DNA of 64,000 bases from Callorhinchus milii (Eukaryota): NCBI RefSeq assembly GCF_018977255.1, contig NW_024704742.1, forward strand, positions 40,798,001-40,862,000, written 5' to 3'. The notes under the pieces are model-generated. The model ran no database searches. It saw only the letters and a program-made list of their open reading frames with translations, and was not told the origin of the DNA. The position numbers and the translations under genes were made by a program. Below are positions 1,396-28,522 of this stretch, one piece after another. Each line of letters begins with the position of its first letter. The first letter of the stretch is position 1.

Positions 1396-1467
1396 CAATT
1401 TTTCTGCCTTTTCATCCAATTGATTTGCATACGTCAAAAGATCCACTTTTGTTGTTGTTTTGCGTAA
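1396..1467 (-). CDS. PROM1: Prominin-1 coding exon 17 (72 nt); gene continues beyond the window start
   Basis: LRKTTTKVDLLTYANQLDEKAEKL; ctttcag|TTA...TTG|gtgagt; no stop codon or TM5 found in the window. Confidence 0.92.
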
Positions 1468-2123
1468 CTGAAAGAAACAATGATTTGAATGCCTTACAAT
1501 TGCAAATTATCATGTAATATGAAGTGGGAAGAGTGAGACTAATTATAGCACTCCTATATCTATCCTACAAAAATGTTTTGCCCAAGTTCCATACTGGAGC
1601 AACATGCCTGAAAGCTCAGGGCAGACAAAGTGTGAAAAGAACACAAGTGGAGGACAAGAAAGTGGGGGTGGAAGAGATTGGAAAAGTAGTATGAGGCAAG
1701 AGAATGAAGGCAAGTAGGGACAAGAGAACGAAGGAAAATGTACTGGGGGACAGAGAGCATATGGGGCAAGGATGGGGGTGATGAAAGCGTGGAACTTGGT
1801 AAGGGAAGAGAGATCAGGCTTGGTTGCCCTCTACTGTTACAGTTAAGCAAATACTCACTGCAAAGTATCACACATAAACAATGAAAACATAAAGGAGAAT
1901 GCCCATGGAATGAAATACATTCAAGAACAAAGCCAAAATGGCAGCCACAAAGTCACTTCCTGTGTTCTGCACTTGCGCTATGCGCAGATAATTTCTGCAC
2001 ATGTACAAGGATTGATAAGCATGAACTTAATGAAGTACTTTACACACTGTTTGTGAAGTTAGGTTACTTTGAAGCTGGCATTTTTATTGGATTGAATCCT
2101 TTTATTTGTAATACATGAGCTTC

Positions 2124-2315
2124 AATAATCCCTCCAAAACAAAACAATAATAAATTGGTCATTTTCAATCCACGACTGTTTGTGGGACACTGCTGTGCGC
2201 TTCGTTTCACCCACAAATATACAGTCAATTCTCTTTACAGCATATTCTGTGAAGCGCTTTGAGACGTCTAGAAGACGTGAAAAGCGTGATATCAAATGCA
2301 AGGATTATTATTATT
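2124..2315 (+). mobile_element. 5'-truncated copy of the same SINE
   Basis: Begins at AATAATCCCTCCAAAAC and runs to the (ATT)n tail; lacks the tRNA head. Confidence 0.88.
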
Positions 2316-2602
2316 AAACATGAAACCAATTTAATCCCAGCAGTGAAAAATCAAGTGGATGCTCAAAGCTCAAAAGGCATTCACATACATTAAAATAAGG
2401 TACGTCTGAAGGTCATGACTTTTTTTTAAAAAACTAATTTGCATAAAGTAGATTCACAGATCACATGAAATTAAGTGGGGTTGCAAATAGAAAATTAGGA
2501 TTTTGATTACACATTATATACCACTCACATTCAAAACAAATGACAGATCTATTTAATGTAGACCTGACATGTTATTTTCTTAAAAAAAGGATGAAATATT
2601 AC

Positions 2603-2749
2603 CTCTGCAATATAGGCATCAAACTCAATGCCATCAATGCCAGATTTTTCAAATTTCTGAAGGCTCTTTTTCACTTCCGGGTCAAGAAGTACTATACTAC
2701 TTAAATCCACATTAATGTTTTTCAAATTGGCTTGTAGCTCAGATGTGTA
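2603..2749 (-). CDS. PROM1: Prominin-1 coding exon 16 (147 nt)
   Basis: YTSELQANLKNINVDLSSIVLLDPEVKKSLQKFEKSGIDGIEFDAYIAE; tttttcag|TAC...GAG|gtaata. Confidence 0.93.
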
Positions 2750-3606
2750 CTGAAAAAGAAAATCACCACAAGAAATATTACATTTATTATGTCAATAAAT
2801 CAAGTACAGTGATAGTCAACATACACATTCTAAAGTTTGTACAATTAAAAGCAAACATCAAAAGTTATTAAAACATACAAACTTTGGAAATTTAACTGCA
2901 TACTTCTTCCCAGATCAAGTAATTCAACAGAGACAGGGAAGCAAACCAGTCACCTTCTGTTCTTTAATATTCTTTTGGTCAACCAGGTATCTGACACATG
3001 CAGAAAACCAGTACCATTCTTAAGAGTTTTCCAAACTTGACAAAATTCCACATATGCATGCCATCTCCATTTGGAAATTTCCAGGCATCTGGAATGGAAT
3101 GCACACTTTCCCTGAAGGGATGCAACCTGCTTACCTAATTCTGGGGAGGATTAGGCACATGTTAGCAAGAGCCAGGGCTTAGGTGTGTATTAGCATACTG
3201 CTGCAGCTTAATCAACTAAAACTGCATAGCTTGCCGCTAAAAGCACTGTTTGCCAAGATTTTCGCTGCTCATCCACTCGAACTCATTACTGTTAAGGCTT
3301 TAGCTAATGGGAGCCGAACTGATGGGAAGGAACCCTATCTCAGTGATCAGTCCCCTCTGCATGACTTGACGAAGACCCAAGGTGGCTGGTTTGTCAGCAG
3401 TAGTGCCTTGGAGTACTGTGGACCCACCTGGCTCAGGAACCGGGCTACCAAAACCATCATAGATGGTGGACTGGATTCCAACATTCTGTTGCCATGCACA
3501 TCATTTGCTCCATATGACATACCACCCACGTAGGGCAGTATTGATGTCTTAACCCATGAGCTGTTAAAATTAAATCAAAATAGATAGTGACAGCAATTTT
3601 ACTTAC

Positions 3607-3691
3607 CATGCTGACATTCATTTGATCCTCAATGCTGAATAAATTCTCCAGCTGTAAAGCGGAATAAATTCCTACTTTTCTGTGGCATTTG
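3607..3691 (-). CDS. PROM1: Prominin-1 coding exon 15 (85 nt)
   Basis: KCHRKVGIYSALQLENLFSIEDQMNVSM; tccag|C...ATG|gtaagt. Confidence 0.93.
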
Positions 3692-5778
3692 CTGGATAAA
3701 ACAAAATTCTGGTTCAGCATTCACAAACTGTATTTGCTTTAAGGCATACACAAAGGATTCTCAAGTGCATAATACTTTCGGGGCTTGAAAAAGATTAAGC
3801 AGTTCTGGAATGAAAGCCGTCAATACTGTCTCTGACTATGGAGAGAAACATTTACTACACATGCAGGTTTGGCCTCGTTGATTTATTACTCTATTCAACA
3901 GGTGGGTCTCTTATGGAAGCTAAGTGCCGATAATCAGAGAGGAGATAATGCTCTTTTTCACTGCACAAGCTATACCAATCCTTCATTAAGTACAAAGCAG
4001 TTTTGCCTGAAGAGTTCTGCCCACCTTCAGCATAATGCTGATGGTTGGATAGATGATATTCGAACCAAAAAGTCCTATGCAATATTCTACATCATCAATT
4101 TTGTCTTATGACGTTAAGTGATTTGCTTTACACAAAACATTTTAAAGTTGGAAAAGAGCCCTCCAACAGCCACTCTGTCAAAAAAAAGTAAAGTAACTAT
4201 TCAATTGAAAGCTTTTCACGGTTACTGCTATATTAAGTGAGAGAAATTATTTAATTCCATCCCTCTACAGCACAATGATGGTCTCTAACTGAAACAGCCA
4301 AACACAGTTACATTTATAGGAAATATTACATTATGGAGTTACTAAGGATGCTTACGTTCAGTAGAACAAAATTTTCATAATTCTGGGCTAGATTCAGACC
4401 TTGGTGGCAGAACAGAAAACATGCTTTCCATTGGACAACTTGGGACTATGCTACAGTTCTCCCAAGACTAGCAATAGCATTACCATAGGTTTCAACTCGA
4501 GTATTGCCAAAATTGCAACCTCCATAGCTCAAGGCAGTAGTTAATTTCCTTAATTAAAAGCAGCAAATTGATGGCAATAATAAATCAGCCCTTTGGCCAT
4601 TTACCACCAATTTATTAATACGAGAGTGAGGAGGGTAAATCTTGCACTTGGAATCTTAGTCTTGCATCCAGCAGTTAACTGCTAATTTACCACTTAATAC
4701 CATGTGTAAATATTCCTCCACAATACTTCATCAAAACTACAGCAGTGCTTCTTCAAAGGAATGAAGTAAATATAAATGAATTTATTCAGTGGCGAATAAT
4801 ATTGAATTCAGTCCTATTACATGAGACTGCATGGATCTAGATTGCAAAAATAGCATGCACCTCAGTACTTTTATATTTTTCCACTTGTACCACTGCCACT
4901 ACTAATGGAAATTTATAGAAAATATATTTTGCAAAGATAAAAAAATTATAAAAACATTTGAATCACATAGTTACAACCAAATTGCTTTGGGAACTCAGAT
5001 ATGTCATTTAAAGCATCACAGGCTGCTGCACTGAGCCATATGAACAAGCTCACACAGGTTTAATCTCTCATCTATGATGAGTCAGCAAATCTCTCATGAG
5101 GTAGTAGAGGGGGTACAATAAGTGTCTTTGGTATCCCAAACTAGGACAGGCGGAGAAAAATAATCAATGAGGATTCCTACTCCAGATCACCTTCCCAGAA
5201 TACAGCAGGCATGTCAGAAGGCAAGGATGCTCAGTTCCAACTTCCCATATGTTGAAAATGCTCATAACTATTAGTTCAGCCACAGCCTCATGCAATATCT
5301 TGTGGCTTGAAATCCTGATGGGTGCCACACACCCTTTTGAGCTTGACAAAATAATAAAGTCCCAGAATTATAAAAGTATTCCATCTAAGATAAAGGAGGG
5401 TGGAGGAGGGATTCCTTGGGGCTGACTCGGCTCCAACGAGGGTCACCTCCAAAGTCAGGCAGGTCTCGTGCAATTCAAGACATTGTTCAGTATGGAAGAG
5501 TGGGTTTGGTTTTCATAGGTCCTCAAGCCAAGGCTAGTAAGCAGGTGAGTCCTGGCCAGTCAAGTACAATGCTGCAATAACAGATCATCAAAAATCGCTG
5601 TCCAGATTTACACATGAAAAATGTTTGAACAATCTCTGAGAACCCACCAGCGTCAATTAACTTTTTACTATTTTCAAAAAAAAACACAGGTTATTGGACA
5701 ATGGATTGCTGTATCAAAACCCATGGTTGAAGCACAATCAACAACAGATTTTATTAATAACAAATCCTTACGTTTGAG

Positions 5779-6082
5779 ATGGTGCCTTTCATAGAACGAG
5801 GACATCTCAAGTACTTCACAAAATATACTGTGAAGAGTAGTGACTGTGCATTTGTAGGCAAACGCAGCAGCCAATTTATGCACAGAATAGTCCCACAAAC
5901 AGCCATGAAATCAATAACCAATAGTTTATTTATTTCGGGGCATGTTGGCCAAGACACTGGGAAGAAAACTGTTCTCTTTTTGAGTAGTGAAATGGGCTCT
6001 TTAACATCCACCTGAACAGGTAGACGTGACATTGTTGGGTTAATGTTGGGTTAACATCTAATCTGAAGCACAGCACTCCAAT
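5779..6082 (-). mobile_element. Old Deu-domain SINE (AmnSINE/SacSINE-like) remnant
   Basis: GCAGCCAATTT.TGCACAG...TCCCACAAACAG...GTTGGCCAAGACACTGGG...TTTAACATCCACCTGAACAGG matches the Deu-domain layout as I recall it. Confidence 0.65.
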
Positions 6083-6382
6083 AGAATATCAGACAACAAC
6101 TTGCATTTACGTAGCATCCTTCGCACGGGGTAGCGTCTTGGAGCAGTTAAACTAAATACAATTAACATTTATATAACACCTTTCACTTCATAAGGATGTC
6201 TCAAAGCGCTTGAAAATGCTGGCTGATCACCCGAGCTAGGGGTGGGAGCCTAGGGGGAAGGGAAAATCTAGAAAGAAAGAATGGCCAAAAAGGTAAATTC
6301 TGAGACAGACCTTGAAAGGGGATAGAGAGAGAAAATAGGAAGGTCTCCAGCAACAAATTAACACAAAGTGCTTGTATCTTAC

Positions 6383-6486
6383 GTGTATACACTCTGGAAA
6401 GTGATGTTTATATTGGAATCAGAAAACAGAGATCCTGAAATGAAGTATTTCCATTCAGAGTTCAATAAATAGGGTGTATCCAGAAC
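6383..6486 (-). CDS. PROM1: Prominin-1 coding exon 14 (104 nt)
   Basis: VLDTPYLLNSEWKYFISGSLFSDSNINITFQSVYT; VLDTPYLLN..W motif. Confidence 0.96.
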
Positions 6487-6612
6487 CTGAAATATAAAGA
6501 GAACCATCCAAATTAACAATGAAGCATTATACTCCAGGAACAAAATAAATACCACGCTTCTGCTCAGTTATCAGTAATTTTATAGTTTGACAAAGAAAAC
6601 TTATAACTTCAC

Positions 6613-6736
6613 CTTAAATAACTCGTTATCTTTTAAAGCTTGACAAGCAAGTTTTTCCACATTTCCTCCAACAATGAATGTGACCACAACGACCACCATC
6701 AAAAGCCAGGAAAAGATAAAACTGATCCCTACTCCA
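6613..6736 (-). CDS. PROM1: Prominin-1 coding exon 13 (124 nt): TM4
   Basis: GVGISFIFSWLLMVVVVVTFIVGGNVEKLACQALKDNELFK; tttcag|T...AAG|gtgaag. Confidence 0.96.
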
Positions 6737-6985
6737 CTGAAAGAAATCGTAAATTCAATTAATTCAATAGAATTAAATAAAGGTGTTCTTTAAAAAGAGA
6801 AACACAAACAGTTCTCTATTAAACACGTTTACAATCTAATCAACGATAACTTGCATTTATATGGTACCCTTCATGCAGAGTAATGTCTCGGAGCACTTAA
6901 CAGTGGGGGAGTTTGATGCGAGCTAGGCATTACTCAGAGCAAAAGTACTTCAAATGTTTTAATTCGATTATTCAGATTCTCTTAC

Positions 6986-7138
6986 GCCATGAGAAGACTG
7001 CCTCCTGTGTTCGATATGCAGCCTCGCGTGGTTGGAGAAGCATGTTTGTCAAGGCCACAGGAGCCAAATAGTAAACCAAGATAGTTGAAAGCAAGGATCA
7101 ACGACACCGAACAACAGACTGCAACACCACCAAGCCAC
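6986..7138 (-). CDS. PROM1: Prominin-1 coding exon 12 (153 nt): TM3 and intracellular loop
   Basis: [62 protein letters not shown] motif. Confidence 0.97.
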
Positions 7139-7216
7139 CTAGAAATACATGCAAGGCCTGAAAACTCTTCCATTCTGAACAATTTGAGACTCATTCACCA
7201 CGTTAAAAGAACTTAC

Positions 7217-7225
7217 AAATGCAAC
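7217..7225 (-). CDS. PROM1: Weak candidate 9-nt microexon between coding exons 11 and 12
   Basis: gtataactttag|GTTGCATTT|gtaagttc; in frame (adds LHL before WLGG); leaves a 78-nt downstream intron. Confidence 0.3.
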
Positions 7226-7914
7226 CTAAAGTTATACAAGTTGCAGGACTTCATTTTAATAAGAAAACACTCTCGCAAAGTTATTTTATCTGGCATCGCA
7301 ACAACGTCCAAAGTTCTATCAAAACAATCCAAAGTTGTATTTTCAAGACAGGTATAGTTACCAATATAAATATTTTACAATTTAAAAAATATATAAATCT
7401 TAAGTGAACAACTTTCCTGATGACTTAATTAGTTTATTGATGGGAAGAAATTGCACTGGAGTGAGATTTACTCCATTTATATAGTATTTTACAGTGTGCA
7501 GGATTTGGCAAATTGTTGAACTGGGTTATCATTGAAATCAGTTTTCTGTAATTCTTAAATGCAATAGAGGAAATCTAGACTTGAGTGGAATTTTTCCCCA
7601 TTAGTAGGAAAACTATAATTGGCCTCATTGCTTTTCAAACGACTCCTTTTGGGCATCGACATCAGAGCCAAGCTAAAGGGAGCTCAAATGTGATGCTATC
7701 TGCGACATTCAATATCGAGGCACACACATTATATTATTTCATGGGTGAGATAGCACATCCAAGCACGGAAAAAAGATGTCATCCACCATGAGAAGAAGAT
7801 GGGGAGGTGAAAACATTGATCAGGGAGAAAAATGCTCTCACCAATGGAAGATGAAAGAAATGATCAGATGACAAAAAGAGGGTCACTTCAGTTACTAAGA
7901 CAAAAGAAAAATAC

Positions 7915-8074
7915 CTGTAAAAGTCATATTGCTCCACCAATGGATAATACTGCTGAAAGTAACTCTGAAAATCTTCGAGGTACTCAGTTAAACTATGAAG
8001 TAAATTCTGAATAGGCAAGTCATTGGAAATGCCTGCAAGAACATCGCCAATACGGTTCAGTACATCATGTACAT
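7915..8074 (-). CDS. PROM1: Prominin-1 coding exon 11 (160 nt)
   Basis: DVHDVLNRIGDVLAGISNDLPIQNLLHSLTEYLEDFQSYFQQYYPLVEQYDFYR; tttcag|AT...AG|gtattt. Confidence 0.95.
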
Positions 8075-8628
8075 CTGAAACAAAGCATGAACACCATGAA
8101 CACCTCAAGTCCACAATGATGTACAGATTAGTTGATTCCATCATTGTTAGCGCTGAAGAATGAAATTGATGAGGAGGATGACAATGTAGGATTTAGCATG
8201 CACATTCTTACTGCCATATACTTAACAAGCCAATTCAAAAATGTGTATGAATCAAACTGAAGCTACATTTATCAGTGCCACAAGACAACATTAGAGCTTA
8301 TGTAATGCATCCATAGAGTTTGAGATGAGTCTGAAATTTACACAGAGTAATGTTTGCAATTTTTCTACAGCCAGAGTTTCCTGTTCTGCTTACAAATCAA
8401 AATGAATAGAAGCTAACATGTTTGAAACTAGCAGTTGATCAATATAACACGGTTATCTATTTCATAAATGTTCTGGGGAGCCAAAAACCCTTTTATATCA
8501 GAGAGAATTTATATGAGAGATTACTATGCGATCAGAAAACTCTGACTTGGTACGTTACATGAAAACACATGGAGACACACAGCACGACACAGATTTTACA
8601 TACTGTGCGTTTTTTTTGCTAAACTTAC

Positions 8629-8637
8629 GAGGGAGAG
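8629..8637 (-). CDS. PROM1: Candidate 9-nt facultative microexon between coding exons 10 and 11
   Basis: ctttttctaattttgcag|CTCTCCCTC|gtaagttt; frame-preserving, changes K-D-V to K-A-L-P-H-V. Confidence 0.6.
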
Positions 8638-8854
8638 CTGCAAAATTAGAAAAAGATGCCACGAACAAAATAAAAAACAGTAAAAAAGAGTTTAGTACAA
8701 GACCACTGAAACCTATATTTAGACAATTCTTTTTTGCACTTCCTTATTTTCTGAAACTATACTAATTTAGTTAGCAGTGAACTGCTCCACTTAAATTAGT
8801 TGGACAAGTCATAATTCATATATAATCAAAGCAGAAATGTTCCTACAGCTGTAC

Positions 8855-8918
8855 CTTTTCGAATAGATTTGGTTTCATTCTGTACCATTTCTTCAGTTTT
8901 ATCCAATGCTGCATATCC
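8855..8918 (-). CDS. PROM1: Prominin-1 coding exon 10 (64 nt)
   Basis: GYAALDKTEEMVQNETKSIRK; ttttag|GGA...AAA G|gtacag. Confidence 0.92.
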
Positions 8919-9154
8919 CTAAAACAAGAATTACAAAATTATTAAAAGCTAAACAGTCCAAAACAAATACATTATTAATTTGTTCTCAACAGTATTATAT
9001 TTATTGTCGGGTCAGTATTTTGGAAGGATGAGATCAAATGAGATGAAGGGCCTTCTTGATCCACATCTCTAATGATCTATTTTCATGCAAAACGGGCCTG
9101 TAATTCTGCTTCAAATTATCGTAATAAATCTAAAGACAGAAATAGAGTTAATTA

Positions 9155-9503
9155 TAGTGCAGCCCTGCTATAACACGTTCAGTATAGCGCCAAATTGCTA
9201 ATAGTATGATTGCACAAAAGTTCACTGCTCACAGAGGCAGCCGGTTCCAATTGTTTCCCCCGCACTGGCAAGCTATCCATGCTAAAATAGCTGATGTTTG
9301 GTCTAATAGGTCACCGCCAATATCACTTCTTGCTTCGTACATGTGCAGAAGCAGGAAGTGGCATTGCTGTTACCCACTGACCTGGAAGGTGACCTTTTTT
9401 CTTTTAGTCCAGGAGTCTGTAGGCACCAGCTACTAATGTCCCTCACTATAATGCCGGGTAGTATTTTATTGATCCAAAACTTGCATTATAGAGAGGTTGA
9501 TTA
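9155..9503. mobile_element. Decayed Tigger/pogo-like MITE
   Basis: Imperfect ends TAGTGCAGCCCTGCTATAACACG / TGCATTATAGAGAGGTTGATTA with internal CTATAA repeats. Confidence 0.4.
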
Positions 9504-9620
9504 GAGCCACATTCTTTTGTAACAGTGCCCAATGTTAGACACAATGTGTACATCAAATCTAGCTGCTTTCTGAAGGCACTGATTGAAGTGTTTGGGGCTT
9601 TTTAAAGCGATAACTCTTAC

Positions 9621-9695
9621 CTTTCGCACCAAGTCAGAGAAATTTGTTTTCTGCACATCTTTCACTTTGGCGAGTTGAGATTCTACACCTTGTAA
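9621..9695 (-). CDS. PROM1: Prominin-1 coding exon 9 (75 nt)
   Basis: LQGVESQLAKVKDVQKTNFSDLVRK; ttcag|TTA...AAG|gtaaga; phase 0 to 0. Confidence 0.93.
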
Positions 9696-10136
9696 CTGAA
9701 GCATTAAAAATAAATTTAGTTGGTTGAAAAAGACAACTCATTAGGCATAACAAAATTACAAAATATTTTTTAAAAATCACTATCCACATTGGGTTTAAAA
9801 TGTAAAGCACCATAGATACCTGAAATGGTATAAAATGCATGCAGTTCACAAGGTGACATTTGTAACACCAAGAATGTTACCAACTATTTTTGATCAGTGT
9901 ATATATTTAAATGTTTACACACCAAGAAAAGGAGCAAGCTTCTGACTGACACGTCTGACTGTTATCAAGGAGGCATTAAGGGACAGCCCGTAACGAGAAG
10001 CAACTAGGTGATGCTGCCTCCACAATTCTGTAGGAATCACCCCATTTATACCATGGGTAAGATTCCACCTCAGTATGGTCGACAGATAATTGCATGCTCA
10101 GAGAGCATCACTGTTGAAGGGATTTGCCAACTTCTG

Positions 10137-10208
10137 CATTGCTCCTTGTGGAGATTGGAATGTGCCAGTGTCAGGTGTGACGTATTCCAATCTCCACAAG
10201 GAGCAATG
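10137..10208. repeat. Perfect 25-bp inverted repeat with 22-nt spacer
   Basis: CATTGCTCCTTGTGGAGATTGGAAT (10137-10161) / ATTCCAATCTCCACAAGGAGCAATG (10184-10208). Confidence 0.95.
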
Positions 10209-10495
10209 GACAATCAGAAAACTATCAGACAAGGCCATCCAGCAAGGTGCCATGGCCTTAATGGGCTTTCGGCACTCAGCACAATGCAGTGTGAGATCCC
10301 ACAATTCAGGGTTTAGATCCCCACTGTAGAGTATCTTTGTCCAGACAAGGTCACTTAATTTGACAAGTTGGTCCTTGGGAGCAAGACATCACTTGCTATT
10401 CAAATTAACAACCAAGCCAAGCTGTAAATTGAATCTGACAAAGCAATTGGAAGGAGGGGAAAAGAAGCAACATATTTAAATAAAGCATCTCTTAC

Positions 10496-10713
10496 CTTAC
10501 TGAAATCTGCATTTATACTAAGACTTGGGAGTGTATTCCTGATGGAGTCACAGATCTGAGTACTTCCTGGTGTCCTGCATGTTGGATCATTCAGTGTGTC
10601 ACCGAGGCTGGTTTGCAAATCAGTCAAGGAAGTACTTAATTTATCGGTTCCATCTTTTAAGACATCACGGGAGAGACTCACATTCTCTAAGGCTTCCTGG
10701 GTTTCCTTGATAG
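10496..10713 (-). CDS. PROM1: Prominin-1 coding exon 8 (218 nt)
   Basis: TIKETQEALENVSLSRDVLKDG...LNDPTC...ICDSIRNTLPSLSINADFSK; tgcag|CT...AAG|gtaaga. Confidence 0.96.
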
Positions 10714-11464
10714 CTGCAGAGGCATACACTTAGTGAGAAATATCCAAGCAATACCACATTTCCTTTACTTTCAACATTACTTGGCTGGACAAAACCCACC
10801 ATATTTCAGCTATAGGTACATTCTGAAGAGAAAATAGATCAGTTTCTACTCATTGAAATATTGAAAGCAGAAAAGTGCATTCTCGTTTCTGAAGTCTCTA
10901 AAACCCCAAATACATCCAAGTTTCTCAAAAGAATGAAAAAATGGACAAATTCATTGACAATTATTGGAATCTTATGGGAAATTGGATGAGTAGATTGGAT
11001 GAATTGATAGTTAAAGTCTGCCTAAAATTGTTATGATGAGCTTTCGTATAGTTATCAAGATCTGCTGCTTATTCTCAAGATCCACAGGTAACGTAAAACA
11101 AATATCAAATTGAGAACTTCATTAATCTAGTTCAAAGTGGCATCCTGAAAACAGTAGCACCACCATTCCAAGAAAGTACCACTGAATTATAATGACCTCA
11201 TATTTCTATTTTAAAAATCATTTTGTTTAAATGGAAATCACAGATTGCTTCAAAAATCTGGTTATCAAGCATCATTGCAGTTCATTCCTTACTGGTGATT
11301 GTGCCAGTTATTCCAAAGTTTAATTATTTTTGTGTTGTATATATTATGTGTTTTTTTTAAAAAAGTTTTCAAAATTCCATTGTTTCAATACCCAAGATTT
11401 ACTTTTCTAGGTCAGAAGCTGCACAAATCACCTGTAAAAATCAGGCCTGTGAAGTGAATTGAAA

Positions 11465-11494
11465 TGCAGCACTATTCTGCCACTAGATGGAACT
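11465..11494 (+). promoter_or_regulatory. Candidate CTCF site
   Basis: Core GCCACTAGATGGAAC (consensus CCACYAGRKGGCRC) preceded by a TGCAG upstream motif at typical spacing. Confidence 0.45.
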
Positions 11495-11540
11495 CAATAT
11501 GCATAGTTCATTGAACATGCAATGGAAGATGGATTCTGCA

Positions 11541-11619
11541 ATATTATAATAGGACCAACTTAGTTGGTCTAGCTTCTAAAATAGAAGCTAGACCAACTAA
11601 GTTGGTCCTATTATAATAT
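11541..11619. repeat. Perfect 38-bp-arm palindrome with 3-nt loop
   Basis: ATATTATAATAGGACCAACTTAGTTGGTCTAGCTTCTA-AAA-TAGAAGCTAGACCAACTAAGTTGGTCCTATTATAATAT. Confidence 0.95.
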
Positions 11620-12647
11620 ATAATATATTCTAAATATATTATATAATATATATATTCTAAATATATTATATAATATATTCTAAAATAGAAGCTAGATATT
11701 GTGGCATTGGTTGGCGCTAGACCTGTGCCCACAAAAAAAAATTTCTCTTAATATAACAATACTTGTATTTGATCATGTCATTGAGACTTCTCAAAGCAAT
11801 TCACAGAATATACTGTAAAATTGACTGTATATTTTGTGGACAAAACACAGAAGCTAATTTCACACAGCAGTATCATTTTCCTATTAGACTCAGAGCTAAC
11901 ACTGTTCCACTTTGGCCTCATTCCCTTCGTTAATTTCTCATTTTTATACTTGAGGGTGCATTTTTGGGGCTGCAACAGAAATTCAGTCTTCAAAGGACTG
12001 ATGAGATGTTTGAACTCAAATTAAGAGATTAAATCACACATCTTTTTATTTGTAAGGAATGTTAGTCTTTCCCCCACATAAGGAGCCACTTTCATTGGTG
12101 GATTTTATGCAGACAAATAATTTCCAAGAGGAATATTTAACAATATAACTAGCTGAGGAGTAAAAATCACCACAATACAACAATGTATGGATTGGAACTG
12201 ACAAAACAAAAACAGGCAACAAACAACCAAAATTTACAAATATACTAAATGTTCTAAAGGCTTCACGACTCTTGTTACCCATCAATGTTACCTTTGATAG
12301 CCCTTTCCACTGTGACTTCAAAGCAAAGCAAGAAAAAGTAAAGCAAAGAAAGCAGATAACTTTGGAAAAATAGCAATAAGATAGACAACAGCAAATCTAT
12401 TTTTATCCTTAATAAACCCTCAAATGTCAAGGGTACAAGTTTTTGTAATCAAGTACATAGACCACTCTAATTTACTATAATTTAGTCTTGTGATTAAATA
12501 TGGTACTTCAAACCAAAACATACATGTTCTCTACAAATTAGAAATGAAAATAATACAGATTATTGCATTTATGACCATCTTATTGTAAGTATTCTTCTGC
12601 TGAGTCATAATTTCTTCCAAGAGTAGAGGCTTTAAACACTAAAAAGT

Positions 12648-12950
12648 GGAGTCCTGTAGCTCAGTGGTTAGAGCACTTGCCTTGCAAGTGAGAGACCTGG
12701 TTTCAGTTCCCGGTAGGGCGAAACCTTGGGCAAGCTTCCTTACTCCTGATAATAATCCCACAAGAAAAAAAAACAATTTAGTCATTTCAATCCACGACTG
12801 TTTGTGGGACGCTGCTGTGCGCAATTGGCTGCCGTGTTTCACTCACAAATATACAGTCAATTCACTTTACAGTGTATTCTGTGAAGCGCTTTGAGACGTC
12901 TAGAAGATGTGAAAAGCGCTATATCAAATGCAAGGATTATTATTATTATT
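12648..12950 (+). mobile_element. Full-length tRNA-Ala-derived SINE (Deu-SINE-related, ATT tail)
   Basis: A box TAGCTCAGTGG, B-box-like GGTTTCAGTTCC, body TTTGTGGGAC.CTGCTGTGCGCAATTGGCTGCC, L2-like 3' end, (ATT)n tail; highly similar to three other copies. Confidence 0.92.
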
Positions 12951-14170
12951 AAAAAGATGTTTTTGTTTAATTGTAATTCCCTGCCTGACAAAAGGTGTTG
13001 GTGTGAGATTGCACATTTCTATCCCCTGATCTACAAATTGTATCAAAACTGTAGTGCCCTTCTTCTTGAAGCTGTTTCATCACCAGACATTATTTTGCCT
13101 TAAAAATCTTTCTCCCTTCTATCAAAAACTATGTTGAAAACAATAAATGTATAACTTAATATGCCCTCCATAGGAATGTTCACTGAAGAAATAAGCAAGA
13201 AATGGTATCGCAATAAAATAGTAGCACAAAATATATTCAAAGGATATTCTTTAAATGAAGCAACAACAATTTGCACCTAATATAGCACCTTTCTTGGAAG
13301 GAGAATGTCTCAAAGCTTTACAAAGACACAGTGGGAACCCGAGGTAGGCGTACGAGAGTGTCAAAGGTGCAGTCAAAAACATGGGTCTTTAGGCAGGTTA
13401 TAAAAGCAGAGGGAGCAAGAGAGAGGATAGAGAGATGTAGGAAAGGAGTGGGGCAAATCTCACCCACCAAATATGGAGGAGAGTGGGCGAAGACATGAAG
13501 CAGGCAAGAGTTTGTATTTCAGAGCAAGTTGGTCGTAGGAATAGGGTGTTCGGAGATCACAAGAGAGACAACACTATTTACTGAAATACGTAACAATGGT
13601 GCCACTTCCTGCATACTGCTTATGTAACAATTTCCCATGCAAAAAACGGCCAACTTCCTGGTAGTCAAGTTGTTGAATCATTTCCCAAGAGTCAATGCAT
13701 AAGCGCTTCTTGCACACATCATGCATGTGCAATATGCAGCAAATTACATTGGTGTTGATCTGAAGACTCAGAAGTCGACCATGTTTAAGAGTGCTGGAGG
13801 CCAGCTGATCTGTGCGTTGAAACCAACAAGTCACTCATCTTATAAGCGAACCGCCCTTTTAGTAGAGTTCCACTCTAATTCATTGTTAATTTTTAAGGTG
13901 GAATGCTAAGGGGTAATTAAATGGAACATTTCTCAATTGATTGCATTTTCAGTTTACAATAAAAGAAGCTTTAAAATTTGGTGCAGTAATGTGACTGCAG
14001 TCCTCAAAGGGTTACGGTGCTTTCAATTCAACCAATTTAACCAGAGAAGGGCACAATAATTAATCCAGAACAGGCGGAGCAAAACAAAAACAAACCTCCC
14101 CTTTGAAGACTGAGTGAACAGAAATTATACTTGACCGCCATACTCAGACAAACAAACATACATTACTCAC

Positions 14171-14260
14171 TTCCAGACATGTGTAAGACTCCATCCAGTG
14201 CAGGGTAAATATCCTTTGCCAAACGTTTCTTAATCATATTGCTGAGTACAGGCCCAATAT
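14171..14260 (-). CDS. PROM1: Prominin-1 coding exon 7 (90 nt)
   Basis: NIGPVLSNMIKKRLAKDIYPALDGVLHMSG; tgcag|AT...GGA A|gtgagt; phase 1 to 1. Confidence 0.93.
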
Positions 14261-17215
14261 CTGCACAATAAAAAAAGTTGGGTAGTACTATGGCGTGATA
14301 AGCAATAAGAACCAACTTGGTTTTGCTGGAACAATGAATGTGAATGAAAAAAGTCAGATATTATTGATATATTCATTGTTCCATGTTTATTCCAGACATT
14401 CAGACAGTTTTTTCAGCATTTAACATTCTCATTCCTAATTTCTATTAGGAAATCAGACAACTGTTGAGAAATATTCATGTGCAGTTCATGATCTTGGCTG
14501 AATCATAAACTGCAGCCATTTGGTAAAGGACCAGAGGATCTTGAAGTGAGTTACTTACTTACTGGGGGGTGGGGGGCAAGAATAGAAGACTGAGCAAAAA
14601 AGCTGTAACAGCTGATAAAATTTGGGGAAAGAACCGCTGACTGACATGAAAACATAGGTTGGGCCATGATTAAATAATTCATATGAAGATATACTTCTCC
14701 AGGAATTAATTCAGCACCCTCTCAGCAGAGAATTTTTTTCTCTTCAAAAGAATATTTACATGAATGATACTATATCTTCCGCTTCATTGCTGCCTCTAAA
14801 GAAAGCATATTGTTTTGAAAAAGGAAAAAAAAAGCCTTAAAGCTAACTTATTTCTTTAATGGTAATATCCCTAACTCCTATTTGATGTAAATGCTTAATA
14901 AAACAAAATACATTAAAACTACTATTAAACCATGGTGAAGGAATCCTCTTTGCATTTGATGACCTGAACCTCAGTTTCTCTACTTTCTCTTCAAAATATG
15001 CCTCAGTCAAATTGATGCATGGTGTAAGCCGATTGAGGTGGTTCAGACACTGATGCAAATGAACAAGGACAGTACTCCCACGAGGGCTCTGGGGGAATAG
15101 GAAGAGATAAGCATCAAAGTTTGTGGAAGCGTATAGTAGGCATCTGTCAATGGTATGAACCACCTGGGAAAAGGCATAGCCCAAGGCAACGAACATGACA
15201 GTCCAGATCACTGAGTGCTTATCTTCTGCCACTGATGGCACAGGCAGTCTAGAGCAGTGTTGTTCAATAGAAATTAGACAAGTCACAAGCGTTGCTAATG
15301 CAACATGGTTTTAGCCACATGGACTCATTTTAGGCAAAATACACTCACACAATACAGTAAATGTACTTCATATGTATGTTTACGTGTATATTTACTTAAA
15401 CATTTACAATTCAGTATGAAACTTTGCGGTCTTTCCTTTTTTACCAAATTGATGGGCTGCTTTTCCTTTTACCTGTAACCAGGGAGAAAACGCCAGAGTT
15501 CAGCAACAATACATTACTATATGGAGAGAGGAGATGTCAACCAATCGGAATAACCACTCCAAGCCAGCAGAAGAAAGCAAGCCCAGACAATAACAAGCAA
15601 CTCCAACAGGGCACGTAATGGCAAAGGGCAAGCAGCATCCAACCTAGTTTGGGATGGAGAGCAGGGACAAATCTTCTCTTTAGTTTTCTTTCTTGAGAAC
15701 CCGTCAGATCTGGTATTTTCACCCATGTTACACACCATTTTAGTAGCTAACCCATAAGCAGTAAACAATGAAGAAAAGCACACAAAACTCTCAAAAAAAC
15801 AACCACATGCACTGATTTCCGTCTTACCATTTTACAAAAAAAAGCACAACAAGTATTAAAGTAGAATACTAAATTATCTATTAATGTTGAAAGGAAGAAA
15901 ACTACCCTAAAATTGAATATTAGTATTAAAATCACATGATCAATGACAGTGTCTATTACTCATTTTTTATTTACTAATCAAAAATGCAATTTAGCTACAT
16001 CTGGATTCTCAATTCGCACATGTGGCTAATGTATTGGTCAATGCTGGTCTAGAGTAAAGGAAGCAACCTAATTCTGAAATATACCAATGAAACAGAGTAG
16101 CCTTGGCTCTGGTAATAAGCCTGCAGGGGGCCTTTATACCCTTAAGTAATCCAAATAAATGTCTCAAAGGCTTACTTGAAGAAAATAGGTCACCCCTTTC
16201 ACTGCTGCAAGAGGATTTGGTGGCATCGTAATAACAGATTTGAAACAGACTATGGATATGGACTACGTAAAGCTGAATAAGTGCCTATATTATCTACTTC
16301 GCTTATTTAAAAAGGGATTTTTAACTGCAATATTCTTTTTTGCAAAACAATAGCTTCCCTCTCCCATTTCAGAATTTGCATGCAGAATATTGCCCTATAG
16401 CTCAAAGTTGGGAAGTGGAAAAAAATGGAATCCGTTTCAGAGGCGCATCAAAATAGCATTCAACATGATATCATACACATGTCAAATAATGTGACGATAA
16501 GTAAAGGATCCAAATCCTAATCGACAGTATCTTATCAAAATCAGTAGGCACACTTGCATAACAAAACAAATAAAAACATAAGACCATAAGAGTTTGCTAG
16601 ACAAAAGAAGACCAAGGTCCATCTAGTTCACCTTCCACCATCCTGGCAGTCGCTTGACATCTCATGTCCCAATGTAAACATAATGTAAATATTGAAACAT
16701 AAAAAGGGTTCACCTAAGAATTTGTACTTTGGTGCTTGAGTAACATAGAATAAGTTCTTTTTTAAATATGAGCTGCAAATTTCACTCATGCCAAACTTAT
16801 TTTAATAACCTAATTTTTAAACTGTGAAGATTAGATAGATCGAGTTTCAATAAAATGATTACATAAGTGGAGTATTAATTTTGTGAGTTCTCACTTCATA
16901 TCGTACTGCTGGAATTTAGGTCTACAAGGATGGTAATTTTTTTTTATCTAAAGTGAACCAAAACCATTTGTGGAAAATGATTGAAGTGATTGAAGTATTC
17001 GGTTCAGCATTTTATGTTGACGTTTTTCAATGTGTAATTATACCAAAACAATCCTGTGTTGAAAGAAACAACTACATATTGAGCAGGGCACACCAATTAC
17101 AGCCAGAAAAACTATAAAGCATGGAGGAGTATCACAGCACATGTTAATTTTTATTCTAACTGAGAAATTTATAATTCATATCAAGGGCAGCTAAAATTAA
17201 AATTTGTTTACTTAC

Positions 17216-17279
17216 TGTTAACATCTGCTAAAGCCTTGTTTTTGGTGGTGTTGTATTGTTTTATGACGTAATCAATTTG
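17216..17279 (-). CDS. PROM1: Prominin-1 coding exon 6 (64 nt)
   Basis: QIDYVIKQYNTTKNKALADVN; ttcag|CAA...AAC A|gtaagt; 110-nt intron from exon 5. Confidence 0.95.
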
Positions 17280-17389
17280 CTGAAATAGAAACAAAAATCA
17301 ATGCACTGGTTTGCTATCTTGTGAAGTGAAACATTTCAAAACATACCTCTTAAAATGTCACTGTATATTTAGCCAAAACACCTCCTTAC

Positions 17390-17510
17390 ACTTGGTGTAG
17401 CATTGATGAAAGTATGTAGGTCTTTAAAGTTGCTGTTGACCAATTTCCTGACTCCTTTAAGCTGGTCAGTTAGATTTTGGTTGGCTGCATATGTGCAGAG
17501 TGCTCCTGCC
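17390..17510 (-). CDS. PROM1: Prominin-1 coding exon 5 (121 nt)
   Basis: AGALCTYAANQNLTDQLKGVRKLVNSNFKDLHTFINATPS; acag|G...AGT|gtaagg; phase 2 to 0. Confidence 0.95.
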
Positions 17511-17809
17511 CTGTTATAATTAAAACAAAAATGTTACTTTGTTGCTTTTCCTTAAACACAAGCAGCCTCTAAGAGATTTCCAATCAAACCTTACCCACCA
17601 AACCGTTCATAAGACCTATTCAGTTGGAGAAAGGGATAGGTTTGATTTTATTAAACCATCACAGATGAAGAAAGATCTTGCATCTTTATTATGCTTAACT
17701 TAAATACTCAACAGTCTTGTGTATTGATTGTTCCTATCCAAAGTCCTGGAACATGTAGCTGCCATTCCTCAGTGGTCTTCCCAGTTCCACTACCCAAATA
17801 TCCAGCCTC

Positions 17810-18140
17810 CCTCAAACTCACCTGCACCAAGATCCACACACCCCTAACCTTAATCCTCACCAGGCTCAACGTCTCTGTCTCCCAACAGATCGACTTCAAG
17901 GTCCTCCTCCTTACCTATAAATCCCTTCAAGCACCATCCAATCTCTTTGATCATCTCCTTCTTACCTCCTCTGCTTGGCTAACTTGGGCCAACACCATTG
18001 GTGGCCAAGCCTTCAGTCACTCACCTCTCATCTCTAGAACTCACTTCCTCTATCCCTCCAGCTTATCCACTTGGTCTTTAAATTCCACCTTAAAACCTAC
18101 CTCTTCAACCAGGGCTATGGTCACCTCCCACTCCCCCCTT
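17810..18140 (+). mobile_element. Decayed L2 LINE fragment
   Basis: IDFKVLLLTYKSL...IGGQAFSH motifs in ORF 17691..18218. Confidence 0.7.
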
Positions 18141-18762
18141 TCTCAATGTTTCTATAGGCAAATGCACCCACCATTTTGTGTTACAACCGGGCCTCAAAAA
18201 CAGTCACAAAGTAAATAACCAATTAATTAGAAAGATTGCTGGCTGGGACTGGGTGAAACTACTTTTTAGAATAACATCATGGGATCTTTAATATTCACCT
18301 GAACAGGATAACAGGATTTCAGTTTTAACATCTCACCCAAAAGACAGAACCTCCAAAAATGCAGTGTTTTCCCCAAACTGCGCTGAAGTTGCCAGCCAAG
18401 ACGGGCGATAAAACATTTAAAGTTCAATAAGATCACAACAAAGATTCAACATCAAGACTACAAAGAAAAGCTTCTGCATTAATGATAGTTAGATTGCAAC
18501 CAAGTCCTTTTCATTTCGCACCTCAAATTATGAGTTATTTGAGTTTATCACAAATTGTTGTCATGCAAACAGTTCAGTAGTAAATGGAAGTAATAAAATA
18601 AGAGCACAGTATTGCCAAATTTCAAAACTACAACTCCCATGAAGCAGACTGATCACATGCACATCATATCTGAAAACTGCACGTCTCCAGACCATACACA
18701 CTTGTAACTGCCAGCGGCTCATCCATAGGTGACATGTGTTACTATAACTATGAGACCTCAAT

Positions 18763-19341
18763 ACAACAACAACAAATTTACATTTGTAAAGTGCCCTTCA
18801 CATTGGGAAGATGTCCCAAGGTGCTGGACAGACAGTGTTTCAGATCCGAGCTGGGGGTCTGGGAGAGTGGAGGGCAGGGGGCGAAGCAGGGAAGTCAAAA
18901 GCATGGTTCGAAGAGGTGAGTCTTGAGATGGGTCTTGAAGGAGGCAAGGAAGGGGGAGAAGTGGAGGGACTGTGGGATGGAGTTTCAGAGGGTGGGGACA
19001 GAGTGGCAGAAGGTGCACCCGCCAAGTGGGACGAGTGAGGCGGGGAACGTGAAGCAGGTTGGAGCCCGCTGAGCGGAGGGAGCGAGCAAGATGGTAGGAG
19101 GTTAGGAGGTCGCAGAGGTAGGGGGGAGCAAGACCATGGAGGGCTTTGAAGGTGAGGACCAGGATCTTGAACTGTATCCTCTGTATAATGGGAAGCCAGT
19201 GGAGTCGGGCGACGATGGGATGATAGGGTCAAGGAGCCTGGTGCGGGAGGGGACGCAAGCTGCAGAGTTCTGGATGATCTGCAGCCTATGGAGGGAGGAG
19301 TTGGAAAGGCCAACAAGCAATGAGTTTGCAGTCAAGCCTTG
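18763..19341 (-). mobile_element. L2 LINE 3' fragment
   Basis: NSLLVGLSNSSLHRLQIIQNSAA...; 3' tail reads (CAA)n on the plus strand. Confidence 0.9.
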
Positions 19342-20506
19342 ATAACTACTTTGCCCTGTGTATGCAATACATATATTATATATATATATTCTGACACTGT
19401 GTCAATCTAATAGAGCCTTAGATTTCTTGTATTACTTCAATTAAATGTTTTTCGGAAGGGTTTCACATGCAATTAGGATTAAATCACATATTCCACGTAT
19501 TAGCGACATGGAAATACATTAATCCAGAAATTAAAGCAATTTAGGCACATGCTCATCAAAGCTCATCACATGCCCTTTATGACTTGGTGAGCAGAGCTGG
19601 ATGCAGTATTTAAGCTGCAGTCTCACCAGAGCACTGTACAGCTTGAGTTTAATATTGTGCTTAGTAGTGATTAATATTGTTGCATACCCTATTGAGCTTT
19701 TTTTCCTCTGGTTCCGCAGTCCTGCCTAGTTAGGCGTGATCTGCTAATTTAACTACTTTGCGCTGTGCATGCAAATACAGATACTTTATCTATTCTTGGA
19801 AATATGAGACCTCTCAGCATTGATCCTCTGAGAAACCACTCAATAGGAGAATGCCATCTGGGAATCTAAACTCAATTGATTTAGCAATTTCGCCCAGCAT
19901 CCTGCTTGCCTTGTTTATTGCTCCTCACACTGTTTTGACATAGTGAGAGATTGCCAAATTAGTTCGAGTTCAAATCCCTTTCATACTCAAATGAAGCAAA
20001 GTGTTTGCTAAACATCATGGTGTCAGTATCAAAGCATGACATACAACAAACAAAAATACACGATTTCTCTACCTCATTTCCTAGAAATTACTCCAGACCA
20101 GCATTGCTGGAAATGTGGGAGCTGCTCTAAGCTGCAGTTGGTATGTAAATGGCTCCATTGCAAATAAATGGATCCCTGAGAAAAGAGCTCAAAATAACTT
20201 GGAACCTTTTCTCCCAACTGTTAAAATAGCTCAGTGGGTAAGGACTACTGAAATTACTTTTACTGATTTTCACCGATAAATATGTGGGAATGTTGGGGAA
20301 AAATGTCAATAGTGTGGTGCACTATGGTGTAAGCATCCCGATCCCCACTTTGCTATGCAACGCTGCTGACTCTGGAAATATAATGAGCATACTGAGAATG
20401 TGTTTTCAATGCACGTACAATTCGGTATGGTACAGTTAAGCTGGTTACGGCAATGGGTGTGCAATGCTAGGAATCTGGGAATGCGTGGCAGATCCATTAT
20501 GCAAAT

Positions 20507-20695
20507 CCCCCTACCTCTGCGACCTCCTAACCCCCTACCAACCCGTCCGTTCTCTCTGCTCAGCCGGCTCTGGCCTGCTCCAAGTCCCCCGATCCACCCA
20601 CCCCACCATCTCGGGCCTGAAATGCTGTACTCTGTTCAGCGCCTTGGGACGTCCTCCCGACGTGAAAGGCGCTATACAAATCTTGTTGCTGTTGT
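20507..20695 (+). mobile_element. L2 LINE 3' fragment, internally deleted
   Basis: PYLCDLLTPYQPVRSLCSAGSGLLQVPRST followed directly by the L2 3' stem-loop and tail. Confidence 0.85.
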
Positions 20696-20799
20696 CTTTA
20701 ATGTGTTAACAAAAGCAGAGACGCTACAATTATCCTCATCATTTATAGAAACTCATAGTTTAATAATCCTTCCATTTGACTTAGTATTGTATCATGTTA

Positions 20800-21135
20800 T
20801 CAGGATGTTTCAAAGCAATTCACAATATTTTACTGCAAATTATAGTGAGCAGACAATTTGCTCACAGCAATATCCCACAAACAGGCATGACATGAATGAC
20901 CAATTTTATTTCGGATATTGTTGATCAGGAGACTTGGAGAAACTCCCTACTTTTTTCAAATAGTGCCATGGGGATCCTGAACTGGTAGACAGGACCTCGG
21001 TTGGACATTGAATCCAAAGGACAGCACCTCCAACAATGCAGCATATCCCCAGCCTGGACTGAGTCAAAGTCCCAATGTGAGGTTTGAACCCATAATTTTA
21101 TGACTCAGAAGCAAGCGTACTACCAACTTAGCCAG
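20800..21135 (-). mobile_element. Old Deu-domain SINE with decayed tRNA head
   Basis: TCCCACAAACAG...AAATAGTGCCATGGG...CCAAAGGACAGCACCTCCAACAATGCAGCA...TTTGAACCC...TGACTCAGA. Related remnants near 18180-18390 and 62730-63015. Confidence 0.62.
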
Positions 21136-24100
21136 GCAGACCAATGTTTTTAGCTTTTAAGCATATTTCAAACCTTGGGTCTAATTCAATATGCAGAAGT
21201 TGTATCCAAATAGCCAAGATAAAGTGCAAAACATCTAACCAGATTGATTTAAAGCATGATTTCAATCGCTTTGTGGAGCAAGTTAGATGAGGTGCAAGAA
21301 GGGTGGAAAAAAAATAAACTTGCATCATTAATAGTCAGGTTCCAGAACCAGAAATTAGCTGTTAATTTGTTTTGGAGGTTTCTTGATTTATTTACAATGT
21401 ACCAGATGCAACTTCTACTACATAAATATCAATAAATAAATGAACTTCTTTTTTTGGGGCAAGGGGAATCTAGGCAAACTACACAGTATATTTAACACTA
21501 TGAAACACCCATAGAGTTTTGCTATCCATCACAATTAAGTAACCATAAATTTACCAGTTTACAGACATTCCAGGTTAACTTTTTTTAAAAAAAGCAGTGG
21601 AAGTTACAACAGAGACCTTAGTAAGATAAAGAATTGCCCAGAAAAGTTTAAAAGTTTTAGGTAACTGTGCACGTTTTCTCCTTCACTTCCCCTACAGCTT
21701 CAACAACTCATTAACTTTGCAGCAACCAGACATTTGTGTCTCAACACATTAGCCAGTAGTAGCATTCCTGATGTAACAAACCACAGCAGTGTCACTGCAC
21801 GGCTGTTTTCCCTCTTTCCCATTTCTGAATGTTGGGGCAAAGTGCTACACGTCAGCAGAGGAAAACCCCTCAGAAAAATCCTAAAACAGATGTAGGACTG
21901 AGCAGATCATTGTCCTGCAGACTGCAAGCACAGTACTATATTGATCACTGAATCTGTCCTTTCCCTTCAGGTATAGACATGAGTATACATGTATCCTGAC
22001 TGAAATGGACAGCTTTGGATGGCAGATAATCTGTAATTAATACATTCAAATTGCTTGATCATAGGACTTGAAGGAGTTGAGTGGCAACCATTTTACAGAC
22101 CCATTCAAGTAATCATTTCTCTGCCAACATGGTTCTGAAACATGCTGAAGCTATACCATCATCAACTTAGCAACGCACATAAACACACACTGGAGTGAAA
22201 TGGTGGGAAAATATCTCCTCTTTCCCCCTTCCCCATGCAGCCCAGAACTTTATACCAGTATTTCCCCTCCCCAAACATTCCACTGGTGTGAAACTGTTGT
22301 CAGTATCCTAACAGCCTGGAGGTTACCGTGGCAATAAAGATGCTCGCCACAGCAAAAGCCTCTTTCTTGCTTTCTCTTTGACAGTCATTCATGCAGTCCC
22401 TCTCCTCACTTGAGAGCTGACCCTGTCGTGTTTGCACTGTAAAGAGGGCAAATTCTCAGCAGGCCAGCAGCACAATGAGAAATGAATCTCGGACACTGCA
22501 CAGTGTAAACCTCACGCCTAACAGTATTGAAATCCCATGCATCTAAGTACATATTGTTTCAAGCAAGCATGAAGTGGAAAAATAAGCTTTCAAAATGAAA
22601 TGAACTGGAAAAATACGCCTTCACTTTCTAGCGAAAGTGGAAAAACTCACAGTAAATGCTCAAAGATCATGTTCCTAGGGCTCCATGCACAACAGTTGCT
22701 CTGCTATCTTGAACCATATAACGCAGAACTAATCTCAATTAAAAGCAGACAATTCATATGCCTATTTTTTCCAGGAAAGGTTAACTATCTTTGGAATGGT
22801 TAACCAACAGTTTATGCTATAGTTACATTTATCTTGATTTCCAAACACACTGTTCATTCTCAGTGCCCTGCTCAATAGGCAGATTTTCAGCATCAAAAGT
22901 GAATTCTGAGTATTTTTCATTCTCCTTCTAGGTGGAAAGGAAATTGATAGCTGGACATATTAGACGGACACAGTGACCATATTATTATGTTCATTGAGTG
23001 TCCAATGACAAGACTGAAATTAGGCAACTCATAACCATGTCCAAAGTCTTAAAAAGACTTCTTTGTTCACGTATTGTACAGCAAGGAAACCCTGTATCCA
23101 CAGACTCCGGAGGTCATTTGCGTTATCACAACAGAACAAAGGATCTTTGAAGACAAGAGAGGAGAAAAACAAAACAAGGCTCCTTTCAGAAAAATAATTC
23201 CCATGCATCTTTAAGCTATCACTCCAGCGCGCTAACTTTACTTAATACAGTACCAAAACAATACTTGCAGCTTTTGTTCTAAATTCACTACTGAGTTTTA
23301 TGCCAAGTTATTCTTTTCTATGCCTTCCAGATAAATTATTTGATACAATTTGCATGCACAAAATACAACTTGTTTTCCTTTCCCCTCTCCCTCAATGGAC
23401 ACTGCTTCATGTACTCTAATACACCCATTTATACTGCTGAAAGAACTGCAAGGGATTTATACTGCAATCTGAAAAGTTCAAGATTTCCTTCATACCAAAC
23501 TCTGGTATACAGTCAGTAATACATTCACCAACACATAACGATTCCTCAGATTGTTTTATGATGGAAAACTGACAGATGAGAAGCACAGATTCCAAAGTGA
23601 GTTGTATTTATACTGCAAATGCAGCTGACAAACACTTTTCTTCCAAAACCATCTTTCAGGAACAGATCCATGCTGATATTTTAGTTTTGCTTTAATGACT
23701 GCTAAATGTCCTGCTATAAAGGGGGCACAATTCAGTAATCCTAAAAGCATTTTTTTGGCAACATGGAAAATATCTAAGATTATCAATTACAATAACCGTC
23801 TGTGATCGTTTGCTGCAGATGTGGCATGTTGTGGATTATTATTATTATTTGTGCCATTCCTGTAAAAATTCTACAAATAGAACTTTAGAAGCTGTCGCTT
23901 TTCATTACAGAATGTTTGGCGCCACTGATGAAAGTTCATCTCTGCCATCAACCATAAGTAAACTAGGGATTAAAAAGAGACCATCACCATTATTTACGCA
24001 TTCCGAGATGCTACCTCGTATGAAGGGAGCAAATTAAATGCAAGTTTTGTTGTTAAAAACTGCTTTGGAATTAAGCAACGTGAGCGTTATTGCAATTTTT

Positions 24101-25906: not shown

Positions 25907-26437
25907 CAATACAATTTACAATGATATTGTGCTTTCACATCAGGAGGATGTCTCACTGCTGGCTGGACAACTGAGCAGAGTGCCGGTGGGTGGGGAGTAG
26001 AAAAATGACCGAAAGCATGGTCAAGAGATAAGTCATGAGACAGGTTTTGATCGTGGGGAGGGAGGGAAGGAACAAGTTGGAGGGACTCCAGGAGAGTTCC
26101 AGAGATCAATGGCAGAATGACTGAAAATTCGCCTGCTAACAATGGGGTGGATAAGTTGAGCGACACAAAACAGGTCAGTGTTCACTGAGCAAAGGGAAAG
26201 GCTCTTTAGGTAGGATTGTAGAAGTTTGCAGAGGTGGGGCAGGCCATGGAGGGATTTAAAGGTGAGAAAGAGAATCCTGAATTCAATCTCTTGGGGATGT
26301 GGAGCCAAGTTAGGATGGGGTGATGGCATTACAAAGACCGGTGAGAAGAAGGCACAGGCTGCAGAATTCTGGATTGTCTGCATCTTGTGCGGAGAAAAGT
26401 TCGGGAGTCCCACAAGCACGGAGTTGATGTGGTCAAG
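25907..26437 (-). mobile_element. Decayed L2 LINE 3' fragment
   Basis: LVGLP...IQNSAA...IEFRILFLTFKSLHGL...LWNS. Confidence 0.8.
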
Positions 26438-26663
26438 TAAGCGTTCCAGTCAGTGCATCTGCGCCCCGAAAGATACTAGATCCATTACCACTTCAAATCA
26501 CTAGCCATCAGGTTGGAAAGTGGGAGGCAGAAGGTGATGTTTGCCACACTGCCTCTATTTGCAGCACTGCACTGTTTAATGGGCAGAAAGTGATATACGT
26601 AGAAACTGTATAAACTAAAAAATCAGTCATTTTGTATTTCAATTGGAAACAAGGTGAACTTAC

Positions 26664-27747: not shown

Positions 27748-27774
27748 CTGTAGAGTCAGGACAACATTTTGTGG
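27748..27774 (-). CDS. PROM1: Prominin-1 coding exon 3, 27-nt facultative microexon (PQNVVLTLQ)
   Basis: ccacag|CCA CAA AAT GTT GTC CTG ACT CTA CAG|gtaaac; same size, position and similar peptide to the alternatively spliced human PROM1 9-aa exon (PETVILGLK). Confidence 0.88.
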
Positions 27775-28409: not shown

Positions 28410-28522
28410 TTAAATGTTGCCGGTCTTTACTAACTTACAACCTTCACAAAATAAACTTCAAGGAATATTTTGAAAGACTACAGGGAAGGGTCATAAAATG
28501 GAGTTGGAAGGTTTCACTTATT

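Follow-up and report, generated by a model that had tools for sequence, protein, structure and literature searches.

The DNA analysed here, a window of 64,000 nt from the elephant shark, Callorhinchus milii, carries a gene whose sequence identifies it as prominin-1 (CD133). An exon model built without the microexon described below agrees with P0002, a C. milii prominin-1, at 654 of 655 residues over coding exons 1–17, and the translation of exon 11 is a 100% match to proteins named Callorhinchus milii prominin-1. Exons 4–11 have the same lengths as the dog PROM1 exons, and the C. milii database isoforms carry a PROM1-type exon 3 and C-terminal exons. We count exons from the one that holds the ATG and include the 27-nt exon 3, which places the microexon in intron 10 (Table 1).

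Table 1. Features of the elephant shark prominin-1 gene, in window coordinates.
Feature	Position	Strand	Evidence
Prominin-1 (CD133), coding exons 1–17; remainder beyond the low end of the window	1396..58794	minus	exon model against P0002
Exon 3, facultative, 27 nt, P-Q-N-V-V-L-T-L-Q; counterpart of human retina microexon	27774-27748	minus	
Candidate 24-nt microexon, intron 7, phase 1, I-T-V-E-R-A-I-K (F7'/8a-like), unannotated	12315-12292	minus	matching isoform inserts
Exon 10, 64 nt, upstream flank, ends in phase 1; N-E-T sequon (N366 of P0002)	8918-8855	minus	contigs, exon model
Acceptor region: 66-nt AG-free U-rich tract and acceptor ttttgcag	8638..8705	minus	sequence
9-nt cassette microexon	8629..8637	minus	sequence, translation, contig of run X1
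Donor of the microexon, GTAAGT	8623..8628	minus	sequence
Exon 11, 160 nt, downstream flank	8074-7915	minus	contigs, exon model, protein match

Minor irregularities were seen elsewhere in the gene. Residue 307 (window 10556–10558) is Q in the window and E in P0002, and the window differs from a transcript contig of run X1 at position 9663 in exon 9; both are small polymorphisms. The UniRef models P0001, P0003–P0006 and P0013 read through splice sites around exons 8–12 into intron and look like prediction errors. At 60313–60273 on the minus strand, 1.5 kb ahead of the start codon, lies a 41-nt segment that is 85% identical to part of coding exon 1 (within-window E 6e-8) and looks like a decayed partial duplication.

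The microexon and its splice sites

Read on the minus strand, window positions 8637–8629 are CTCTCCCTC, with a U-rich tract ahead, a 5' flank that ends in ctaattttgcag and the 3' flank gtaagtttag. A preliminary description of this DNA had proposed a microexon here from an acceptor and a donor 9 nt apart in PROM1 intron 10, and the sequence, the exon model and an exact match in an X1 contig bear this out. The sub-introns on either side are 217 nt and 554 nt long. Translation confirms the symmetric phase (1-1) and the peptide change proposed earlier: the frame is kept and free of stops, and inclusion converts K-D-V into K-A-L-P-H-V, so that D is replaced by A-L-P-H with a net gain of three residues. 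Only two of the 17 AG-free zones in the gene are longer than the 66 nt that precede the microexon. A putative branch point, TACTAAAC, identified by motif match, lies ∼58 nt upstream of the microexon.

The acceptor had been called strong and the donor consensus. The acceptor indeed ranks fourth of the 17 in the gene; the donor does read GTAAGT, but its score of 8.2 is mid-range for a gene in which donors span 4.9–12.2. These scores come from matrices trained on the gene's other splice sites, which are crude and miss both exon 3 and the 24-nt candidate of intron 7. When the microexon's own score was taken as the threshold, the microexon was the only AG..GT pair, 3–30 nt apart, to reach it in 57,175 nt of sense strand, and none did so on the antisense strand. 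Among 3000 simulated versions of intron 10 (dinucleotide model), seven contained any pair as strong and two a pair that also kept the frame. The scan and the simulations show merely that the splice pair of the microexon stands out. The second-best pair of the scan, a 21-nt AG..GT at 33560–33540 of the minus strand in intron 1, is without other support.

Inclusion and skipping in transcripts

Transcript contigs over window positions 6900–9760 were obtained from four (X1, X3, X4 and X5) of the 13 runs listed, the RNA status of each run resting on an automatic guess and on the spliced joints seen in its contigs. In a contig of run X1 (1822 nt, depth 309.9), position 8855 is joined to 8074 via nine letters identical to 8629–8637. 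Contigs of X3 (depth 56) and X4 (depth 25.5) instead splice exon 10 straight to exon 11 and skip the microexon, which rules out a constitutive exon. In the same contigs the introns next to these exons are spliced out at CT..AC (GT-AG) ends. The X1 contig that includes the microexon has three introns removed, and its depth of 310 compares with 4–5 for intronic pieces of that run. Included and skipped mRNA forms therefore both exist, in different runs; inclusion was seen in one contig of one run, and contigs give the presence of a form and not its level, and lose rare forms. The preliminary description had looked to inclusion transcripts to settle the status of the exon, and X1 supplies one, alongside the skipping forms of X3 and X4.

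Run X5 yielded no contig that bridges the junction of exons 10 and 11, and one of its contigs begins within 2 nt of the start of exon 11. In intron 9, positions 9011–9042 are matched by a short piece of an X1 contig (depth 66) that otherwise has nothing to do with the gene. No second copy of this piece is present within the window, and it is probably a fragment of a dispersed repeat.

Database proteins

The expectation that gene prediction would miss the microexon held, in that none of the 16 C. milii database proteins contains it. We examined 241 prominin-1 proteins and dropped two short fragments. The set is biased, as it draws on the best 120 of 1609 matches to a query without the insert and represents two clusters in part. 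Of the 239 aligned, a single one has an insert at the junction: crane isoform P0227, in which A-V-P-Y replaces the same D. Among the matches listed, the insert was thus found in 0/16 chimaera, 0/111 shark and ray, 1/109 bird-cluster and 0/3 mammalian proteins. It was likewise absent from all 30 candidates among short shark fragments. Of 150 representatives listed at 50% clustering, the best 34 were aligned, and none shows a three-residue insert at the junction column. Absence from the representatives of other prominins says little, because annotation so often misses the exon. Absence from elasmobranch proteins also says little, because a chick cDNA has the exon yet bird annotations almost never do; the microexon might nevertheless have been lost in elasmobranchs.

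Relationship to mini-exon A10'/11a

Short facultative exons of non-mammalian prominin-1, which the preliminary description had mentioned, do exist: the accessible parts of the literature contain mini-exon A10' (PMC3047580) and Xenopus exon 11a (PMC3108902), and also a dog counterpart (PMC5049760). As given in the accessible text of Jaszai et al. (2011; PMC3047580), A10' is a facultative mini-exon between prominin-1 exons 10 and 11, described from bony vertebrates only. Its peptide is ALPY in axolotl, AIPH in ESTs of X. tropicalis, where the exon is either in or out, ALPR and SLPG in tilapia and trout, and ALP in zebrafish prom1b, stickleback and medaka; the exon is also present in chick variant s17, and the authors report finding none in human or mouse (PMC3047580). 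In the dog, S1 Table of PMC5049760, as far as it was accessible, gives a 9-nt exon 11a (ALP) between exons of 64 and 160 nt, flanked by tgcag and gtaag. In X. laevis, according to the accessible portion of PMC3108902, exon 11a is alternative and occurs in four of seven full-length cDNA variants.

The elephant shark microexon lies in the same intron as A10' and encodes an ALP-like peptide, whereas A10' is known from bony vertebrates and the present host is a holocephalan. The axolotl A10' has been described as a four-residue insert; the elephant shark exon adds a net three residues, the junction D being replaced. The resemblance to dog exon 11a extends to the 64/9/160-nt layout, the tgcag and gtaag flanks and the equal lengths of exons 4–9, although the dog exon is 'predicted to be facultative' whereas that of the elephant shark is seen both ways in contigs. 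Exon 11a of X. laevis is alternative and sits at the same place, but is listed as 12 bp as opposed to 9 here; the discrepancy may be genuine, or the figure may stand for four codons. Intron flanks were compared across species over the 5 nt given for the dog, and these match. The peptide type common to vertebrates is a small residue, a hydrophobic one and proline, then H or Y (ALPH, ALPY, AIPH, AVPY). The ALP-like insertions that the preliminary description had wished to see in orthologues are there, as ALPY, AIPH and ALP in the accessible text of PMC3047580 and as AVPY in the crane. Because intron, phase, length, flanks and peptide are shared, the elephant shark microexon is very likely orthologous to A10'/11a. 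The origin of the exon, formerly placed in the ancestor of bony vertebrates, would then probably lie in the ancestor of jawed vertebrates.

Could the exon be an artefact, in which chance splice-like motifs coincide with an assembly error in one contig? Inclusion was found in a single run whose RNA status was guessed, and this is the case for it. Against it, the nine inserted letters are exactly the predicted exon, the contig that holds them is properly spliced at three introns and is some 310 deep where intronic pieces reach 4–5, and motif pairs this strong arose in just 7 of 3000 simulations; we regard an artefact as extremely improbable. It is only slightly less improbable that a real exon had an independent origin in this intron, its likeness to A10' being no more than resemblance. 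Nine bases carry little phylogenetic signal and, among the matches listed, the insert is in none of the 111 elasmobranch proteins, as independent origin might predict; but the intron, the phase, the length and both flanks are the same, and the peptide is near-identical (ALPH compared with ALPY, AIPH and AVPY). We are accordingly highly confident of the combined reading, a real, alternatively spliced 9-nt exon of elephant shark prominin-1 that is orthologous to A10'/11a and descends from the jawed-vertebrate ancestor.

Control of inclusion

Ordinary exon definition does not work on an exon as short as 9 nt, which without help is left out of the mRNA. We propose that the prominin-1 microexon would be skipped by default for this reason, and that a cell-type-restricted factor would help U2AF and U1 to load on the distal branch point, the long U tract and the GTAAGT donor, leading to inclusion. 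SRRM3/4 would be the most likely helper, an assignment to which we give slightly less than an even chance. In the accessible text of bioRxiv 2024.09.17.613571, SRRM3/4 microexons have a distal branch point and a long AG-free tract, with UGC in 74–79% and not strictly needed. The elephant shark exon shares with them a length of ≤27 nt, the keeping of frame, the long AG-free tract and the distal branch-point-like motif. It differs from the typical SRRM3/4 microexon in having no separate upstream UGC: none was found between −50 and −6, and the sole UGC overlaps the acceptor itself.

Musashi seems a less likely helper than SRRM3/4. Downstream UAG motifs are a Musashi signature in the accessible part of PMC4991804, and we found no enrichment downstream of the microexon, with three UAG in 198 nt against 2.4 expected (0–5 at the gene's other exons). 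Control by Musashi is therefore unsupported by motif counts.

The gene has one further short exon and one candidate. The 24-nt candidate of intron 7 has two UGC motifs just before its acceptor. Five sharks and one ray (including Stegostoma, Chiloscyllium, Heterodontus and Hemitrygon) have annotated isoforms with inserts that match it, whereas the C. milii proteins fetched lack it; it resembles zebrafish F7' (PMC3047580) and frog 8a (PMC3108902), as these are described in the accessible text. Exon 3 has a weak acceptor score, an AG-free zone of 107 nt and three upstream UGC, and is present in some UniRef models and absent from the RefSeq-type isoforms fetched.

Predicted effect on the protein

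The junction corresponds to D374 of P0002, between the second and third hydrophobic segments; on this topology the insert is in the first large extracellular loop, as had been proposed. A search of the PDB by sequence match returned no solved prominin structure. Folding models were made for the crane isoform pair, not for the elephant shark protein; its two members differ by the insert and by one distant residue. Without the insert, residues 368–400 are modelled as one continuous helix, with pLDDT of 93 and 91 over 371–390. With it, the helix is interrupted where the insert begins, at residue 382, and pLDDT is 80 and 76, a fall that is partly expected since the insert occurs in just one of 82 aligned sequences.

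In the elephant shark sequence, hydrophobic residues near the junction are spaced three to four apart. The inserted leucine fits this pattern, at four residues from the isoleucine ahead of it and three from the valine that follows, and the buried face should therefore remain in register. The N-E-T sequon for N-glycosylation, eight residues before the insert, is conserved: sharks and rays share it, as do birds in the form N-Q-T. The models suggest that inclusion is likely to add about one helical turn and a proline to an amphipathic helix, 33 residues long, in the first large extracellular loop, and that the helical bundle would stay folded but kink locally at the proline. Such a change would tune the shape of the ectodomain, and may thereby alter self-association, partner binding or preference for curvature at curved membranes.

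Discussion

The exon itself has been known from publications since 2011, and the novelty lies in the taxon and the age. We found no published report tying a prominin exon to Callorhinchus or to cartilaginous fish in the full-text literature, where subscription papers were mostly outside reach, and exon databases such as VastDB may catalogue it. The increment is modest, given that the exon was already published and that deep conservation of vertebrate microexons is expected.

A real and orthologous exon might still be a strictly photoreceptor-specific switch of the RetMIC or Musashi type, like other short exons of PROM1; the preliminary description implied something close to this in setting retina against kidney. 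PROM1 does host retina-enriched microexons of 27, 18 and 24 nt, a GUUUAG motif lies just past the donor, and exon 11a is in three of five frog retina cDNA variants in the accessible part of PMC3108902. The remaining two of those five skip it, however, and variant s7, which our parsing of the table assigns to the kidney block, carries it (PMC3108902). PROM1 is a host gene of the SRRM3-dependent RetMICs, but the rows given for it by Ciampi et al. (2022; PMC9303857, accessible part of supplement file 2) are of 27, 18, 18, 24 and 24 nt, and the same file holds no 9-nt PROM1 row for human, mouse, chicken or zebrafish; nor did the accessible text of PMC11445533 and PMC10967083 contain anything on the microexon. 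With these mixed frog cDNAs, the missing row and a downstream UAG count close to expectation, a retina versus kidney switch is unsupported, and we think strict photoreceptor specificity unlikely. It is less likely still that the exon, though conserved, is a nearly neutral passenger, which some cells include without effect and which human and mouse lost at no cost. Its reported absence from those two species and a third codon that varies with little effect would suit such a passenger; a length, phase, flanks and A/S-hydrophobic-P peptide kept from chimaera to bird and dog would not, and neither would its position on the main contig path in X1.

Adding the microexon corrects the elephant shark annotation. 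Three codons conserved for so long argue for a function, and we found none assayed in the accessible parts of published work. We suggest tentatively, and with well below an even chance of being right, that A10' has acted as a functional switch of the ectodomain from the earliest jawed vertebrates onwards. It would belong, with exon 3 (27 nt) and F7' (24 nt), to an ancestral set of microexons, all represented in the chimaera gene, that reshapes the extracellular helical bundle by cell type; its control would be unlike that of PROM1's retina-specific microexons, and it would have been lost in human and mouse. If this is true, mammalian CD133 would retain only part of the isoform repertoire of the ancestor.
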